Assembly: GCA_028279595.1 (NCBI GenBank)
Contig: JANQNK010000010.1
Location: 1 to 46,304, forward strand
Direction: 5' to 3'
From: Thermoplasmatota archaeon
GTDB lineage: Archaea > Thermoplasmatota > JAKEGO01
Length of the DNA stretch: 46,304 bases
A program made the position numbers and the translations under genes. Within the stretch, counting starts at the first letter, position 1; each line of letters opens with the position of its first letter. Shown in pieces: positions 10,624 to 16,845 of the stretch. The notes below the pieces were generated by a model, which did no database searches, was not told the DNA's origin, and saw only the letters and a list, made by a program, of their open reading frames with translations.

Positions 10624-11940
10624 TCATTCCAGCCCTTTCCGGACGCGGGCCATGTGGTCTATCTTCCTCTGTATGGCCTCCATGGTCCCGATGTCGTGCC
10701 TGGCGAAGAACTCGCCGTCGATGCCGGAGAGACCCGCTTCGGCGTGCTTCTCCGCATCCTGTATCCTGTCGGCGATCCCGAGGATGCCAAGGGAACGCGA
10801 CCTGGTCGTTAGAACGAAGCCATTGCCCGCATTGACGGAAGCGTAGAACAGCATCAGGTCGGTGGTCTCGGGGGTATCGACCTTCAGTGGTGAGCCCTCG
10901 AGCGGGTCTGTGCCGTATCCCTTGGGGACGACGTACTTGACGACCGTCGCCTTGGGCCTGAACTTGGCCGGCTCGAGACGTCCCTCGACGATCTGCCATG
11001 AAATCTCGAGCAGACTGTCCTCTAGAAGTGGAAGGACGTTCATCGCTTCGGGATCGCCGAAGCGCACGTTGAACTCGATCACCTTGGGTCCGTCAACCGT
11101 CTCCATGAACTGTCCGTAGAGGATGCCCTTGTACTCGTTGCCTGACTCGGCCATCGCCTCGACGGTCTTCCGCATTATCTCGACCGCCTTGTCGACGTCC
11201 TCCTGCGGGACGAAGGGCAGGATGCCGTCCGGCATTGAATAGGAGCCCATCCCTCCCGTGTTGGGACCGCGATCCCCCTCGTAGGCACGCTTGTGGTCCT
11301 GGACCAGCGGCATCGGGATCACGTTCTTGCCGTCGACGAACGCCTGCAATGTGAACTCCTCGCCGGTAAGACACTCCTCGATCACGACGGACCTGGACCC
11401 GCCTATACAGGTGTCGATGACCTCCTTGGCGTAGTGGATGGCGCCAGCGCTGTTCTGGAAGTGGTCGCCCCAGACCTTGACGCCCTTTCCGCCGGTCAAT
11501 CCGACGGGCTTGACGGCCACCCGGCCGTTGAGCTCGGTTATGAATGCGGCGGCGGCGTTCGTGTCCGAGAACACGCCGTAGCGTATCGCTCCGGGAACCT
11601 CGTACTCCGCCATGAGGTCCCTCATGAACGACTTCGATATCTCGAGACGAGCGGCTCCCGCCTTGGGTCCGACGGCCGGAACACCGGCCTCCTCGAGGGC
11701 GTCCACGACGCCCGCACCCAGGGGAGCCTCGGGACCGATGAATGCGATGTCGATGCCCATCTTCGTTGCGTAACCGGCAACGGCGTCGACCTCTGTCTCC
11801 TTCCCGATCATGTGGTCCTTGCAAAGCTCCACGATCCCTGGATTGACATTCGACATGAACGCGTACAGTTCCGCGTCCTCGGCGAGCTTCTTAGCGATAG
11901 CGTGCTCTCTTGCGCCTCCTCCGACGATCATCGCCTTCAT
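10624..11940 (-). CDS. purD: Phosphoribosylamine--glycine ligase
   Basis: GGGAREHAI, GPEAPL, GLTGGKGV, QDHKRAYEGDRGPNTGGMGS and EFNVRFGDPE motifs. Confidence 0.97.
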   Translation of the reverse strand: MKAMIVGGGAREHAIAKKLAEDAELYAFMSNVNPGIVELCKDHMIGKETEVDAVAGYATKMGIDIAFIGPEAPLGAGVVDALEEAGVPAVGPKAGAARLEISKSFMRDLMAEYEVPGAIRYGVFSDTNAAAAFITELNGRVAVKPVGLTGGKGVKVWGDHFQNSAGAIHYAKEVIDTCIGGSRSVVIEECLTGEEFTLQAFVDGKNVIPMPLVQDHKRAYEGDRGPNTGGMGSYSMPDGILPFVPQEDVDKAVEIMRKTVEAMAESGNEYKGILYGQFMETVDGPKVIEFNVRFGDPEAMNVLPLLEDSLLEISWQIVEGRLEPAKFRPKATVVKYVVPKGYGTDPLEGSPLKVDTPETTDLMLFYASVNAGNGFVLTTRSRSLGILGIADRIQDAEKHAEAGLSGIDGEFFARHDIGTMEAIQRKIDHMARVRKGLE

Positions 11941-12458
11941 GATTTCACCTCTAGTATCTCCTCAGCGGTAAGCAGTGCCTCCAACTTGACATCGATCACT
12001 GAAAGTGCCTCTCGACCGCCCTCCTGGCGGTCGACCACGGCTATTACCCGGTCCACGGTCGCCCCGGCGTCCCTGAGCGCCTCCACGGCCCTGGCGACGG
12101 AGCCAGCGGTCGTTATCACGTCCTCGACCAGAAGGACCCTGAGTCCGTTGACGTCAGCGCCCTCGATCCTCTTGCCCGTTCCATGTTCACGTCCGCCCTT
12201 GCGGACTATCACGTAGGGCAGATCGATGTCCAACGAGACCGCTGCGGCGATCGGGACTGCGCCGAGCTCTGTCCCTCCGATGAGGTCCTCTCCGGTCCAT
12301 CGCCGGCCCATCCTCCTCGCTATCACAGCGAGTATGGCCGGTTCGGTTATCGCCCTCTTGATATCAACGTAATAGGACGACCTCTTTCCGGAGGAAAGGG
12401 TGAAGTCCCCGAACTTGACGCTCCCGACGTCAACGAGCATCTCCAATAGAGTGGGCAT
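11937..12458 (-). CDS. pyrE: Orotate phosphoribosyltransferase
   Basis: FGDFTLSSGKRSSYYVD and VEDVITTAGS PRPP-binding motif; start ATG 12458 with TATTAA about 25 nt upstream; stop overlaps purD start (ATGA). The longer 497-aa track ORF is an upstream over-extension. Confidence 0.95.
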   Translation of the reverse strand: MPTLLEMLVDVGSVKFGDFTLSSGKRSSYYVDIKRAITEPAILAVIARRMGRRWTGEDLIGGTELGAVPIAAAVSLDIDLPYVIVRKGGREHGTGKRIEGADVNGLRVLLVEDVITTAGSVARAVEALRDAGATVDRVIAVVDRQEGGREALSVIDVKLEALLTAEEILEVKS

Positions 12459-12548
12459 TGTCCTCGGACCTGCGAAAGGGATTGACGTTAATAGTAGTTG
12501 CGGAAAACCCGGGACAGTCCTTGGAATGGAAACCCGAGGTGATGTTGG

Positions 12549-12676
12549 TGACATTGAGCGGGCGGGAGAACCCCGACAGGACGGGTTCGGGTCTGTCATT
12601 GATTGTAATAATCGATCATTCTCCGCTGTCGCTGCCACCGCCTTGCGGAGCGGTGAGCGACCAACCCGCGGATCGA
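12549..12676. other. Candidate structured RNA element (two imperfect hairpins) between mutL and pyrE
   Basis: Nested stems 12622-26/12668-72, 12628-33/12656-61, 12636-40/12651-55 and 12641-42/12647-48, closed by a GCAA loop on the minus strand; second hairpin 12549-53/12594-98 and 12568-73/12583-88. Confidence 0.3.
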
Positions 12677-12799
12677 GCACGGTACCGTTCAATCTGATAT
12701 TGGAGCATTCATTGACGGGAAAGGCGAGGAAGATCGAAAGATACGACGCATCGGGGACCGATTCCTTCAATGACCATATTAGGTCGCCGGGGTCCCGGG

Positions 12800-15415
12800 T
12801 TACCCAAGCCGTCCGAACTTCTTCTCCATGTACTGGAACGGAAGCTTGATCATTGTCGGACGTCCGTGGGCGCAGACCTCGGGATTCTCGAGCCGGTCGA
12901 GGGCAGACACGAGGTCGGCCATCTGGTCCATCGTCATGGGGTCCCCGGCCTTGATGGAGGCGTGGCACGCCATCGATTCGAGGACGCCCTCGAGAACCGT
13001 GGTCTTGACCCCCCGTTTCCGCTCCTGGATGTCCTCCAGTATGCTCCTCAGGGACCTGGCTGGATCGGGCATCCGGAAGAGGACGGGTACAGCCCTGACG
13101 AGGACCCCCGTGCCGAACTCCTCGATCTGGTAGCCGAGCTCCTCGAAGTGCTCCAGGTTGTCCTTCAATGTCTCCAGGTCCCTCCTGTCGAGGTGGATGA
13201 AGGCTGGTTCTATCAGTTCCTGGACGCCGAACTCCCGGGATTGGAGCCTTTCGAGGTTTATCCTCTCTGCAGCAGCGTGCTGGTCGATGAGGTAGACGCC
13301 GTCCGGCCCCTCGGCGACGATGAACTCGGCCCGAGCCTGTCCGAGGATACGAAGTGGAGGAAGATGTTTCCCGACGAACTCCCTCTCGCCGGGCTCGGCG
13401 AGGGGTTTCGTTCCGAGGGCCGCCTTCCATCGGCCCTTTCCCGGGTCCTTCGCCGGCGACGGCGGCGGTCTTGCTCCGGACCCCTTTACCGGAGGCGGGG
13501 CAGGCTTCGGTGCACCCTTCTCCCAGTCCGAGAGTGTCGTCTCGGCGGATTCCGGCTCGTACGGGACGCTCTCCTCGGCCACGGCTGCGGCCATCTCCGG
13601 GATCGGGAACTCGTGTTGAAGGGCTCGCTGGACCGCCTTGGTCAGGACACCCGCTACATCGTCCCTGAAGAAACGGACCTCGGTCTTCTGGGGATGGATG
13701 TTAACGTCGACGTCCTCGGGCGGGATGTCGATGTGGAGGAACGCTGGCGGGAACCGGCCGAACATGGTCCTCGGCCGATATGCCTCCCTCAGTGCATCGC
13801 TCAGTTCCCGGCTGCGGACCCATCGACCGTTGACGATGAAGTGTTGAAGCTTCGACGACGCCCTTTCCACGGATGGTCGGGCGACGAGCCCGGTTATCCG
13901 GACCTCACCCTCTGCGGAGACAGGGACCAGGTCCTTGGCAAGGTCGACCCCGCAGATATGGCCGATGTTGGTGCGCTTGTCCTCAGTGGCGGGCGCGTTC
14001 AGGACCTCCTGTCCGCTGGAGACGAGTTTGAAATGTATGCTGGGATTGGCGATCGCCTCCCTCATTACCGTGTCGATCACGCGGACCAGCTCCGCCCGCG
14101 CATGGGACATGTGCTTCATCCTCGCGGGGACATTGAAGAATATCCTCTGGACCGATACGGTGGTGCCGACAGGACGTCCGGTCGTTCCGGTGTTGACAAC
14201 CTTCGCGCCCTCGACCCGGATGGTCGTCGCCCTCTCGTCCTCCTCGGACCGCGACGCGACCTCCAGAAGCGACACGGCTCCGATGCTTGCAAGGGCCTCC
14301 CCCCGGAATCCGAGGGTCGATATCCCCTTGAGGTCGTCGGGCCCCCCGACCTTGGAGGTGGTGTGGCGCTCGACAGAGAGGAGGGTATCCTCCCCTGACA
14401 TCCCGACGCCGTCGTCGGTTACCTTGATGAGCTTCCGGCCGCCCTCCTCGACCTCCACGGTGATGGTGCCCGCGTCCGCGTCGATCGAGTTCTCGACGAG
14501 CTCCTTGACCACCGATGCGGGACGTTCCACTACCTCTCCAGCGGCTATCATCCTGATCGTTTTCTCGTCAAGTGCGACTACCCTGGTCACGGTCGGGGAT
14601 TGCGGTCCGGTTAGATAAATCCTCGGTGGAGTTTTCTCCGGCGGAAAGGGTTCGGGATCGAGTTCTGCAGGCTTTGGTTCGTAGTCCCCACCCCCTCTTC
14701 GCAGGACCTCGAGCTCCCTGTCGATGATCTTCGCAATATCATATCTGAGATCCTTGGGCGCAGCTGGATGACAGGATATCCTGATGACGGAACTCGCCGA
14801 GTAACCGACGAACCTGTAGACGTCCACCCTCGCTGTTTCCGGGATGTTGAACGAGCATCGCCTCCATTCAGGATCGCCGTGGCCCGGGCGGACCATAAGT
14901 GTGTATCCCTCTGAGCGCAGAGCCCTAGATACTGCAAGGGCCATCGAGACGTGACCTCGGTCGGACATTATCGCGACGTCGTTCTCGCACCGGAGCAGAT
15001 GACGGACCTCCAGCAATGCCCACATCACGACGAACAGGTGCGCGAGCAGGTCAAGGACAAGGAGGAGGTCTTCAGCTCTATCCCCCCGGCCCATCAGCGT
15101 ATGGTAGGTGAGCAGGTACATTCCGAAGAACGAGATGAAAAGGAGACGCCGGGTCCCCTTCACGTGGTCAAGGTCGGCCCGTAGGGAATACCAACCGCGC
15201 ATCTTGATCGCCTCGGCCTCGGCCGGGATCCTGTCGACCGATAGGACGAAGACGGCCGAGATAAGCATGATCAGAAGGAAGAGGTGGCCCGTCCGCCCGT
15301 CGACCCATTCAGCGAGGCCGATGGAAAGGAGGACGAGCAGCAGGGCCAGGATGATGACCGGGACCGCTGAGCGGGTGTCGTAAAATCGAATGAGGTCCCA
15401 GTCCACAACGTTCAT
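12800..15415 (-). CDS. mutL: DNA mismatch repair endonuclease MutL, in frame with an N-terminal multi-pass membrane domain (MutL moiety begins at about GTG 14590)
   Basis: GHKL motifs IAAGEVVERPASVVKELVENSIDA, DDGVGM, TSK and TLGFRGEAL; DVNIHPQKTEVRF; endonuclease motifs DQHAAAERINLE, ACH and CAHGRP. The first 275 codons contain about 4 hydrophobic helices and no stop. Confidence 0.9.
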   Translation of the reverse strand: MNVVDWDLIRFYDTRSAVPVIILALLLVLLSIGLAEWVDGRTGHLFLLIMLISAVFVLSVDRIPAEAEAIKMRGWYSLRADLDHVKGTRRLLFISFFGMYLLTYHTLMGRGDRAEDLLLVLDLLAHLFVVMWALLEVRHLLRCENDVAIMSDRGHVSMALAVSRALRSEGYTLMVRPGHGDPEWRRCSFNIPETARVDVYRFVGYSASSVIRISCHPAAPKDLRYDIAKIIDRELEVLRRGGGDYEPKPAELDPEPFPPEKTPPRIYLTGPQSPTVTRVVALDEKTIRMIAAGEVVERPASVVKELVENSIDADAGTITVEVEEGGRKLIKVTDDGVGMSGEDTLLSVERHTTSKVGGPDDLKGISTLGFRGEALASIGAVSLLEVASRSEEDERATTIRVEGAKVVNTGTTGRPVGTTVSVQRIFFNVPARMKHMSHARAELVRVIDTVMREAIANPSIHFKLVSSGQEVLNAPATEDKRTNIGHICGVDLAKDLVPVSAEGEVRITGLVARPSVERASSKLQHFIVNGRWVRSRELSDALREAYRPRTMFGRFPPAFLHIDIPPEDVDVNIHPQKTEVRFFRDDVAGVLTKAVQRALQHEFPIPEMAAAVAEESVPYEPESAETTLSDWEKGAPKPAPPPVKGSGARPPPSPAKDPGKGRWKAALGTKPLAEPGEREFVGKHLPPLRILGQARAEFIVAEGPDGVYLIDQHAAAERINLERLQSREFGVQELIEPAFIHLDRRDLETLKDNLEHFEELGYQIEEFGTGVLVRAVPVLFRMPDPARSLRSILEDIQERKRGVKTTVLEGVLESMACHASIKAGDPMTMDQMADLVSALDRLENPEVCAHGRPTMIKLPFQYMEKKFGRLG
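14612..14620 (-). promoter_or_regulatory. Putative internal TATA box for a leaderless MutL-only transcript starting at GTG 14590
   Basis: ATTTATCTA on the minus strand, 21 nt before the GTG that begins the canonical MutL N-terminus; similar box and spacing to GTTTATCA before the S8 gene. Confidence 0.45.
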
Positions 15416-15438
15416 CCAGGTTTACCGGATTCTGTGGC

Positions 15439-15511
15439 TTTATATAGTTTTCTGAAAAAGAGACAGATGTCGTCCAATGTCGAAATCGTTCTCGAACTAA
15501 ACCTATATATC
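15439..15511. promoter_or_regulatory. Divergent TATA boxes (membrane-MutL ORF / paaK)
   Basis: TATATAAA on the minus strand at 15439-15446 (23 nt before ATG 15415) and CCTATATATC on the plus strand at 15502-15511. Confidence 0.55.
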
Positions 15512-15543
15512 ACAAAAGGCCTTGCTCCACCGGAGGCATCACT

Positions 15544-16845
15544 ATGGACGATCAGGTTTGGAGCAGCATGGAGACGGCCGGTCTCGACGAACTCAGGGAC
15601 ATCCAGCTCAAGCGGCTGAAGTGGGTCACGAAGCACGCCTACGACAACAACGAGGCCTATCACAAGAGGTTCAAGGACGCGGGTTTCCATCCGGACGATA
15701 TCTCGACCCTTGCGGACGTCACCAAGATACCAGTTCTGGCGAAGGAGGACCTCAGGGATGCCTATCCATTCGGACTCGTCTGCACTCCCAAGGACACCTG
15801 GATCGAGCTCCACAGCTCCTCAGGGACCACGGGAAAGCCCGTCACCAACGTCTACACCGAGAACGACCTCCAGGCGTGGGCCGAGGTAATGGCCCGGGGA
15901 CTCTACGCGGGAGGCCTGAGGCCGGGGGAGAAGATGCAGATCGCCTACGGATTCGGACTATTCACCGGTGGATTCGGCTTTTACCACGGAGCCCGTCGGT
16001 TGGGAGCGTTCACGGTCCCGACGAGCTCTGGCAACACCAAGCGCCAGATACGCCTCATGAAGGACTTCGGAGCCCACGCGCTCGCAGCGACGCCGTCGTA
16101 CGGCCTTTACCTGGCCGAGGCGGCCCATGACATGGGAATGTCGTCGGACGAGTTCGAGCTCAAGGTCGGATTCTTCGGCGCGGAGGCCTGGTCAGAGGAG
16201 ATCAGGGGAAAGATCGAGACGGCATGGGGGCCCGGGTTCAGGGCCGCCGAGGCGTTCGGTCTGACCGAGGTCGGCGGGCCTGGCACGAGCTTCGACTGCG
16301 AGCATCGGACAGGGCTTCACATAAACATGGACCACTTCCTTGTCGAGTGTGTCGACGAGGAGATGGAGCCCGTCGGCGAGGGCGAGGAGGGAGAGCTCAT
16401 CATAACTACGCTCACGCACGAGGGCTTCCCGGCGATAAGGTTCAGAACGAAGGACCTCTCGATGCTCCACGAGGAGAAGTGCGAGTGCGGCCGGACCCTA
16501 GTCAGGCATTCCAGGATCCTCGGGCGGAGGGACGACATGATGAAGATCAAGGGAGTCATCGTCTTCCCGAGGCAGATCGAGGAGGCAATACTCACTGTCG
16601 ACGGCGCGAGCGGAAACTACCAGCTCGAGAAGTACATGGCGGGACCCTTCATGGACCTCCTCGTCAAGGTGGAGCCGGAGCCGGACAGATGGAAGAAGGG
16701 CGATCACGGAGCCCTCTCGGGGGAGATATCGACCGAGATCCACAACATCGTCGGGCTCAACCTCAAGGTAGACATCCTCGAGCCGGGAACGATACCGCGT
16801 TCCGAGGGGAAGGCCCAGAGGGTCATCGACAGGACCAAGGAGTAG
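15544..16845 (+). CDS. paaK: Phenylacetate--CoA ligase family protein
   Basis: AYPFGL, HSSSGTTGKP, YGFGLFTGGFG, GAEAWSEE, FGLTEVGGPG, GRRDDM and PRSEGKAQRVIDR motifs. Confidence 0.92.
   Translation: MDDQVWSSMETAGLDELRDIQLKRLKWVTKHAYDNNEAYHKRFKDAGFHPDDISTLADVTKIPVLAKEDLRDAYPFGLVCTPKDTWIELHSSSGTTGKPVTNVYTENDLQAWAEVMARGLYAGGLRPGEKMQIAYGFGLFTGGFGFYHGARRLGAFTVPTSSGNTKRQIRLMKDFGAHALAATPSYGLYLAEAAHDMGMSSDEFELKVGFFGAEAWSEEIRGKIETAWGPGFRAAEAFGLTEVGGPGTSFDCEHRTGLHINMDHFLVECVDEEMEPVGEGEEGELIITTLTHEGFPAIRFRTKDLSMLHEEKCECGRTLVRHSRILGRRDDMMKIKGVIVFPRQIEEAILTVDGASGNYQLEKYMAGPFMDLLVKVEPEPDRWKKGDHGALSGEISTEIHNIVGLNLKVDILEPGTIPRSEGKAQRVIDRTKE

Follow-up and report, generated by a model that had tools for sequence, protein, structure and literature searches.

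Endonuclease-type MutL proteins (TIGR00585), such as those of Bacillus subtilis and Aquifex and of the bacterial-type MutS/MutL systems of some archaea, are treated as soluble, and a conserved membrane-anchored form would represent a new architecture for a core repair enzyme. To our knowledge, no membrane-anchored MutL has been described, and literature text searches found no report of one, which is not proof of absence. Protein isoforms arising from internal RNAs (intraRNAs, from internal transcription start sites) have been described in the archaeon Halobacterium salinarum (Ten-Caten et al., 2018; PMC6161675). In this study, the mutL locus on a 46,304-nt stretch of a Thermoplasmatota archaeon genome (assembly GCA_028279595.1, contig JANQNK010000010.1; the whole stretch is hereafter called the window) was analyzed. 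There, an open reading frame (ORF) at 12800..15415 on the minus strand runs for 871 codons without a stop and joins, in one frame, 275 codons that belong to no known family to a complete MutL endonuclease. A first-pass annotation of this DNA had proposed that both a soluble and a membrane-anchored MutL may be made from this one locus, and sequence comparison supports that proposal by a conserved fusion, purifying selection and a kept internal promoter. The reading we favor, and consider probable, is that of a lineage-specific fusion that has retained the leaderless promoter of mutL itself and would give both soluble and membrane-tethered MutL.

The MutL part occupies residues ~276–869 of the 871-aa translation and scored 470.9 bits against TIGR00585 (cut-off 180). 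All three Pfam domains, HATPase_c_3, DNA_mis_repair and MutL_C (PF13589, PF01119 and PF08676), exceeded their gathering scores, and alignments to the MutL profile models started at residues 276–281. Motifs I–IV of the GHKL (gyrase/Hsp90/histidine-kinase/MutL) ATPase read ELVENSIDA, DDGVGM, GFRGEAL and GTTV in the translation, and in a 12-sequence MutL alignment they are invariant columns. When the endonuclease metal site was sought by the motifs DQHA(X)2E(X)4E, ACR-like, C(P/N)HGRP and FXR, the translation was found to carry DQHAAAERINLE, ACH, CAHGRP and a C-terminal FGR, all kept in the relatives, by which a nuclease is predicted; a clamp-type motif, QELIEP, is present as well. These results bear out two calls of the first-pass annotation, that is, an intact MutL with both its ATPase and its endonuclease motifs, and 275 in-frame, stop-free codons before it. 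In a phylum-wide comparison, the MutL open frames of other genomes were mostly 584–717 aa long; a 1482-aa open frame around mutL in genome G016 (L009, G016:C51) was rejected as a GC-rich shadow frame, rich in Arg, Gly and Pro, and is not a MutS–MutL or other fusion. As had been noted before, no mutS lies within the window; the cognate MutS is encoded on contig C4 of the same genome by an 890-aa ORF of the five-domain MutS1 type (domains I–V), so that a standard MutS/MutL pathway would be expected. Judged by its profiles and motifs, the MutL part is an ordinary member of its family.

A search restricted to the N-terminal 275 residues was used to find fused homologues, and two further fused proteins were obtained, namely P0002 (871 aa, with an extension 67% identical to that of the window), which is present in two samples, and P0003 (849 aa), which is cut at the 5′ side by the contig end. 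Their contigs (L015/L016 and L017) come from three metagenome samples other than the window's assembly, and the window protein, P0002 and P0003 align with zero indels, L017 from codon 23. Nei–Gojobori ratios of nonsynonymous to synonymous substitution (dN/dS) for fused-lineage pairs, at dS of 0.5–1.5, were 0.11–0.30 in the helices, 0.12–0.15 in the soluble domain and 0.04–0.14 in MutL, and near-neutral values of 0.4–0.9 were obtained for the linker. The coding frame of the extension holds no stop, compared with 1–9 in each of the other two frames. These estimates indicate that the extension is under purifying selection in the three fused lineages. Further, the distance from the ATG of the long ORF to the GTG where canonical MutL begins is 825 nt in the window, in L015/L016 and in L019 (a relative with separate genes, see below), while the adjacent non-coding spacer 3′ of mutL varies, being 341 nt in the window, 344 nt in L015 and 253 nt in L017; this combination suggests that frame or length is constrained.

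The window comes from a metagenome-assembled genome (86% complete, 21 contigs), so that a stop missing through assembly or sequencing error, or a chimeric contig, had to be weighed. However, a stop-free and indel-free fusion recurs at dS of 0.5–1.5 in three other metagenome samples, and the flanking gene order is identical; an artefact is therefore hardly credible and looks already refuted. Since the stop-free fusion is found in four independent assemblies, it is not an assembly error, and with dS of ~1 between the fused lineages the event is old. By these comparisons, assembly error or a very recent loss of the stop is excluded to a reasonable standard. The alternative raised by the first-pass annotation, that an upstream gene had lost its stop, thus stands in one part, as fused and split forms differ by one stop codon (see below), and fails in its claims of a recent mutation (dS ~1) or of an assembly error (four assemblies agree).

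The split form was recovered by an exhaustive profile search of 1.8 billion representatives, which returned P0001 and one other cluster, P0004 (E = 8.6e-53); a repeat protein at E = 3e-6 was judged to be a chance match. P0004 lies on contig L019, the one contig, from one sample, from which the split form is known, and the gene order there is the same. In L019, a stand-alone module gene runs from ATG 5906 to TGA 6664 (252 aa) and is followed by a 66-nt spacer and by mutL from GTG 6731. This GTG is in frame with the module gene, exactly 275 codons from its ATG, and the TGA at codon 253 is the sole interruption. The stand-alone form keeps the helices and the invariant motifs, with pairwise dN/dS of 0.28–0.41. 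The gene caller had started it at a later ATG (5966), giving 232 aa; the conserved ATG 5906 has a TATA box 23 nt upstream. The JGI name for P0004, "Ca2+/Na+ antiporter", was rejected, as it has no Pfam support in the homologous window sequence. In G001, a genome of the same family, the PaaK-like gene (paaK) and mutL are divergent and 223 nt apart, without a membrane gene between them. Relatives of the kinds that the first-pass annotation had suggested looking for, with the same fusion (P0002, P0003) and with a stand-alone homologue (L019), were thus both found.

A five-gene tree of 1461 columns, rooted on G001, had the topology ((window, L015), L019) with 86% support, and informative sites numbered 28 vs. 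18 vs. 14; the fused lineages are probably a clade, with the split lineage as their sister. With housekeeping genes as the reference, the rate of module evolution along the path to L019 was ~3 times that seen inside the fused clade, which is compatible with either polarity. A word-index search with residues 1–275 against proteins of 151–482 aa gave no homologue, and its alignment-based repeat gave P0004 only. When the N-terminal module alignment was run against metagenome and genome contigs, no further loci were obtained, the search patterns being too degenerate. A search of 40 related genomes did not return the N-terminal module with the query used there. In an ESM Atlas feature search, the best match was a 57-member archaeal (Thermoplasmatota) cluster of 232 aa, whose score of 0.84 is below the trust level of 0.9; as a lead only, this cluster hints that more stand-alone forms may exist.

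Within the linker, the TATA-like box ATTTATCTA lies at 14620–14612, exactly 21 nt before the GTG at 14590, precisely as called in the first-pass annotation. The TTTATCTA box, the 21-nt spacer and the GTG mutL start are common to five lineages (window, L015, L017, L019 and G001), and in both L019 and G001 the arrangement of CCGAGGATTTATCTA, 21 nt and GTG is the sole promoter-like element before the separate mutL. On this comparison, the internal TATA and GTG are the true mutL promoter and start of the relatives with a separate mutL. Consistently, over the 16 codons 265–280 the proportion of synonymous differences (pS) was 0 in all three fused pairs, vs. 0.5–0.65 elsewhere, and codons 263–277 form the sole 15-codon window in which all 15 third positions are identical across the three fused lineages (gene-wide mean third-position identity, 0.47; binomial probability ~1e-5 per window, or ~0.01 when corrected for ~835 windows). 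This synonymously frozen block falls where the protein itself is least conserved, and because its synonymous sites are frozen, protein-level selection is not a sufficient explanation. Synonymous conservation runs ~10 codons beyond the GTG, as might be expected if a leaderless mRNA began there. When the spacing between an AT-rich octamer and the first ATG was tallied for long ORFs over the whole genome, a sharp maximum was seen at 21–25 nt, with 165–189 cases per position vs. a background of ~35–70. By this measure, most genes of this archaeon look leaderless, and the two starts of the locus, at 23 and 21 nt, have the spacing typical of such genes.

It could be argued that the long, membrane-anchored MutL alone is made and that the internal TATA-like box is a relic, or is kept for a coding or RNA reason and not as a promoter, given that the peptide PRIYLTGPQS is also conserved as protein in the fused lineages and that intragenic AT-rich octamers can arise by chance. 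However, we regard this as very unlikely in view of the frozen synonymous sites, of the recurrence of the same element and spacing in L019 and G001, where they are non-coding and intergenic, and of the same octamer before mutL in G002, a genome of the same order. In G002 (L003:1400-1500), the TTTATCTA octamer stands ~60 nt upstream of the mutL ATG, together with a GGTGA ribosome-binding site, and relative to leaderless mutL the octamer is placed about 60 nt further upstream; one promoter box thus appears to be used for mutL with a 5′ leader in one lineage and without it in another. In the window, the divergent PaaK-like gene (15544) is an exception to the leaderless pattern, having GGAGG ~8 nt before its ATG.

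The long ORF has a promoter-like element of its own, TATATAAA, exactly where the first-pass annotation had placed a TATA box, at 15439–15446 and 23 nt before the ATG. The 27-nt block around it has the identical sequence in L015 and a nearly identical one in L019, and the spacer to the ATG varies; an exact search with this block gave no match in metagenome or genome contigs. Between the membrane module and mutL there is no oligo-T run (at least five T) and no obvious archaeal terminator, so that, with no stop either, an upstream transcript should read through and the ribosome should continue into MutL. The lack of an oligo-T terminator also bears on the view that the fused ORF is real and yet results in two separate proteins, through cleavage of the linker or because upstream transcripts rarely reach mutL, in which case all active MutL would be soluble and the fusion a tolerated accident. 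The near-neutral linker, the constraint still seen on the stand-alone L019 form and the strictly kept internal promoter, which would make MutL supply independent of the fusion, all agree with that view. Besides the lacking terminator, however, the exact length and frame are kept though nearby non-coding DNA varies in length, and the locus has no known protease site or processing signal; taken together, these points make two separate proteins distinctly unlikely.

Residues 1–275 matched no Pfam or NCBIfam family. Kyte–Doolittle analysis gave four hydrophobic segments, at residues ~17–37, 44–60, 90–108 and 116–136. Lys plus Arg residues number 2 at the N-terminus, 6 in loop 2 and 3 after helix 4, vs. 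1 and 2 in loops 1 and 3, respectively; from this excess at the N-terminus, in loop 2 and on the C-terminal side, both termini are predicted to be inside and MutL to be cytoplasmic. The AlphaFold2 (AF2) model of the full extension contained helices and was poorly folded (pLDDT 56), and Foldseek with this model found nothing at E ≤ 1e-3. The soluble alpha/beta domain of ~95 residues was modeled better, as AF2 with residues 140–250 alone gave pLDDT 77, pTM 0.70 and a beta-alpha-beta4-alpha topology. Against 48,161 chains, VIA-align ranked the METTL16 KA1 (kinase-associated-1) domain first (Z 10.8, root-mean-square deviation 2.0 over 91 residues), followed at Z 8.6–9.5 by Flpp3, the KA1 domains of SAD-B, Chk1 and Kcc4 (KA1 domains other than that of METTL16, Z 8.6–9.3) and BamC-N. 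Similarly, Foldseek with the domain model returned Flpp3 (6e-4) and the SAD kinase KA1 domain (9e-4), and an Atlas search returned DUF3568 lipoprotein domains at a TM score of 0.7. Residues 1–285 had no Pfam match at E ≤ 0.1, the KA1 profile (PF02149) included, and the predicted relation to KA1 would be a resemblance in fold, to an alpha+beta arrangement that is common, and has no counterpart in sequence. The modeled fold suggests a membrane-surface, nucleic-acid-binding or autoinhibitory role for the soluble domain. The linker, residues 241–275, holds 10 Pro in 35 residues. The first-pass description of the extension as about four hydrophobic helices, a small soluble domain and a Pro-rich linker thus agrees with the hydropathy profile, the AF2 models and the Pro count. 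N-terminally tagged MutL proteins are commonly active, and the long flexible linker need not block dimerization of the ATPase domains.

In the reading we favor, an orphan gene for a predicted four-transmembrane (4-TM) protein with a cytoplasmic KA1-like domain lies directly upstream of mutL and continues into it in frame, since a sense codon here takes the place of the one stop that keeps the two genes apart in the sister lineage. What were the end of the orphan gene and the former mutL spacer now make up the Pro-rich linker, in which the former mutL promoter (the TTTATCTA box) and the GTG 21 nt downstream persist intact. Both promoters would fire: from the upstream leaderless-type promoter, the 871-aa protein would be synthesized and inserted with its N-terminal module in the membrane and MutL in the cytoplasm, and from the internal leaderless-type promoter, the ordinary 596-aa soluble MutL would be made, as the partner of the MutS encoded elsewhere.

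Several points weigh against this reading. A change from split to fused and one from fused to split are equally parsimonious, and L019 is placed outside the fused clade with only 86% bootstrap. The 24 near-neutral linker codons would be stop-free in three lineages with a chance of ~10–20% under neutrality, by a rough estimate, so that the open linker argues weakly for constraint. With a near-neutral linker and a stand-alone membrane protein in L019, the fusion may add nothing functional. Further, the membrane module is found in four lineages only, a small sample, its transmembrane helices are predicted from hydropathy and from an AF2 model of low confidence (pLDDT 56), and GTG is generally weaker than ATG as a start on leaderless mRNAs. 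We lean towards membrane tethering being tolerated or mildly regulatory. That the long isoform is instead a selected, working membrane-anchored mismatch-repair endonuclease, whose 4-TM and KA1-like module keeps a fraction of MutL bound to the membrane on its cytoplasmic side, perhaps with long/short heterodimers formed through the shared C-terminal dimerization domain, is a tentative idea and, in our judgment, rather unlikely. If true, nicking could be restrained or directed to DNA near the membrane, the amount of free MutL would depend on the relative output of the two promoters, and the protein would be the first membrane-bound component of MutS/MutL repair. The coordinates of the features are collected in Table 1.

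Table 1. Features of the fused mutL locus in window coordinates, with the observations on which each assignment is based.
Feature	Position	Strand	Basis
Long ORF, 871 aa: membrane module, linker and MutL (predicted long isoform)	12800..15415	-	Orthologous fusions P0002, P0003
Canonical-length MutL endonuclease coding sequence, 596 aa (predicted short isoform)	12800..14590	-	Profile matches; phylum MutL lengths
TATA box TATATAAA of the long ORF, 23 nt before ATG 15415	15439..15446	-	27-nt block kept in L015, L019
Four hydrophobic helices, residues ~17–136, both termini predicted cytoplasmic	15008..15367	-	Kyte–Doolittle, loop Lys+Arg counts, AF2 helices, dN/dS 0.11–0.30
Small soluble beta-alpha-beta4-alpha domain, residues ~146–240, predicted KA1/Flpp3/BamC-N-like fold	14696..14980	-	AF2, VIA-align, Foldseek, dN/dS 0.12–0.15
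Pro-rich linker, residues 241–275, corresponding to gene tail plus intergenic spacer of the split form	14591..14695	-	dN/dS 0.4–0.9; L019 codon 253 = TGA
28-nt block identical in three fused lineages, holding ATTTATCTA (14612–14620)	14597..14624	-	Alignment; same box before mutL in L019, G001
GTG, canonical MutL start (predicted leaderless start of the short isoform)	14588..14590	-	Kept in window, L015, L017, L019, G001

The downstream flank, a phosphoribosyltransferase gene followed by purD, is the same in all three contigs from other samples, and the upstream run of TrkH, diphthamide synthase, a 187-aa protein, PTH2 and the PaaK-like ligase was seen wherever the contig reaches that far. In L019, an extra C5-epimerase-like gene (PF06662; L019:1290-2255) lies between trkH and the diphthamide synthase gene and is not there in L015. 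A block at ~12625–12661 on the minus strand, with the imperfect inverted repeat GTCGCTCACCGC ... GCGGTG-GC-AGCGAC, is kept in the window, L015 and L017; it lies inside the 341 nt that separate the mutL stop (12800) from the phosphoribosyltransferase start (12458), a region that otherwise differs by ~90 nt among close lineages. The block might act as a 3′ element for mutL or, alternatively, as a leader for the phosphoribosyltransferase–purD genes. An Rfam scan of 11500–16000 gave no match, with one sub-threshold chance hit.

The variant is restricted to a few uncultured archaeal lineages, and a conserved membrane-anchored MutL could serve to examine whether the membrane is a site at which mismatch repair can be localized or restrained. 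It also offers a clean evolutionary snapshot, in that the absent, split and fused states occur among close relatives and the split and fused states are one stop codon apart. The captured promoter of the downstream gene would be a concrete route to archaeal internal-promoter isoforms and to new N-terminal domains on housekeeping proteins. For annotation, the locus is a warning, as gene callers give the 871-aa product alone here and 232 aa in place of 252 aa in L019.

Compared with the described systems, all domains and motifs of canonical endonuclease-type MutL are present in residues 276–871, and a MutS1 partner is encoded in the genome; the locus differs from canonical MutL by the 275-residue N-terminal membrane module. 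Within this module, the predicted beta-alpha-beta4-alpha fold superposes on the KA1 domains of MARK/SAD/Kcc4/Chk1 kinases and of METTL16/TUT1, and on Flpp3, BamC-N and DUF3568; unlike a member of these families, however, it shows only 7–15% identity and no sequence-family match, and the fold is a common one. Roles in lipid binding, RNA binding or autoinhibition would be conjectures by analogy with KA1 domains. As in Rosetta-stone fusions, the components are adjacent and separate in one lineage (L019) and form one ORF here, one in-frame stop apart. In contrast to such fusions, the partners are a clade-restricted orphan membrane protein and a housekeeping repair enzyme. Similar to the intraRNA loci of H. 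salinarum (PMC6161675), a predicted promoter lies inside a coding sequence just upstream of an in-frame start, by which an N-terminally shortened leaderless isoform would be possible. The locus differs from the intraRNA loci in that the origin of its internal promoter is traceable, this being in all likelihood the ancestral promoter of the downstream gene captured by fusion, and in that its two isoforms would differ by a whole membrane anchor.

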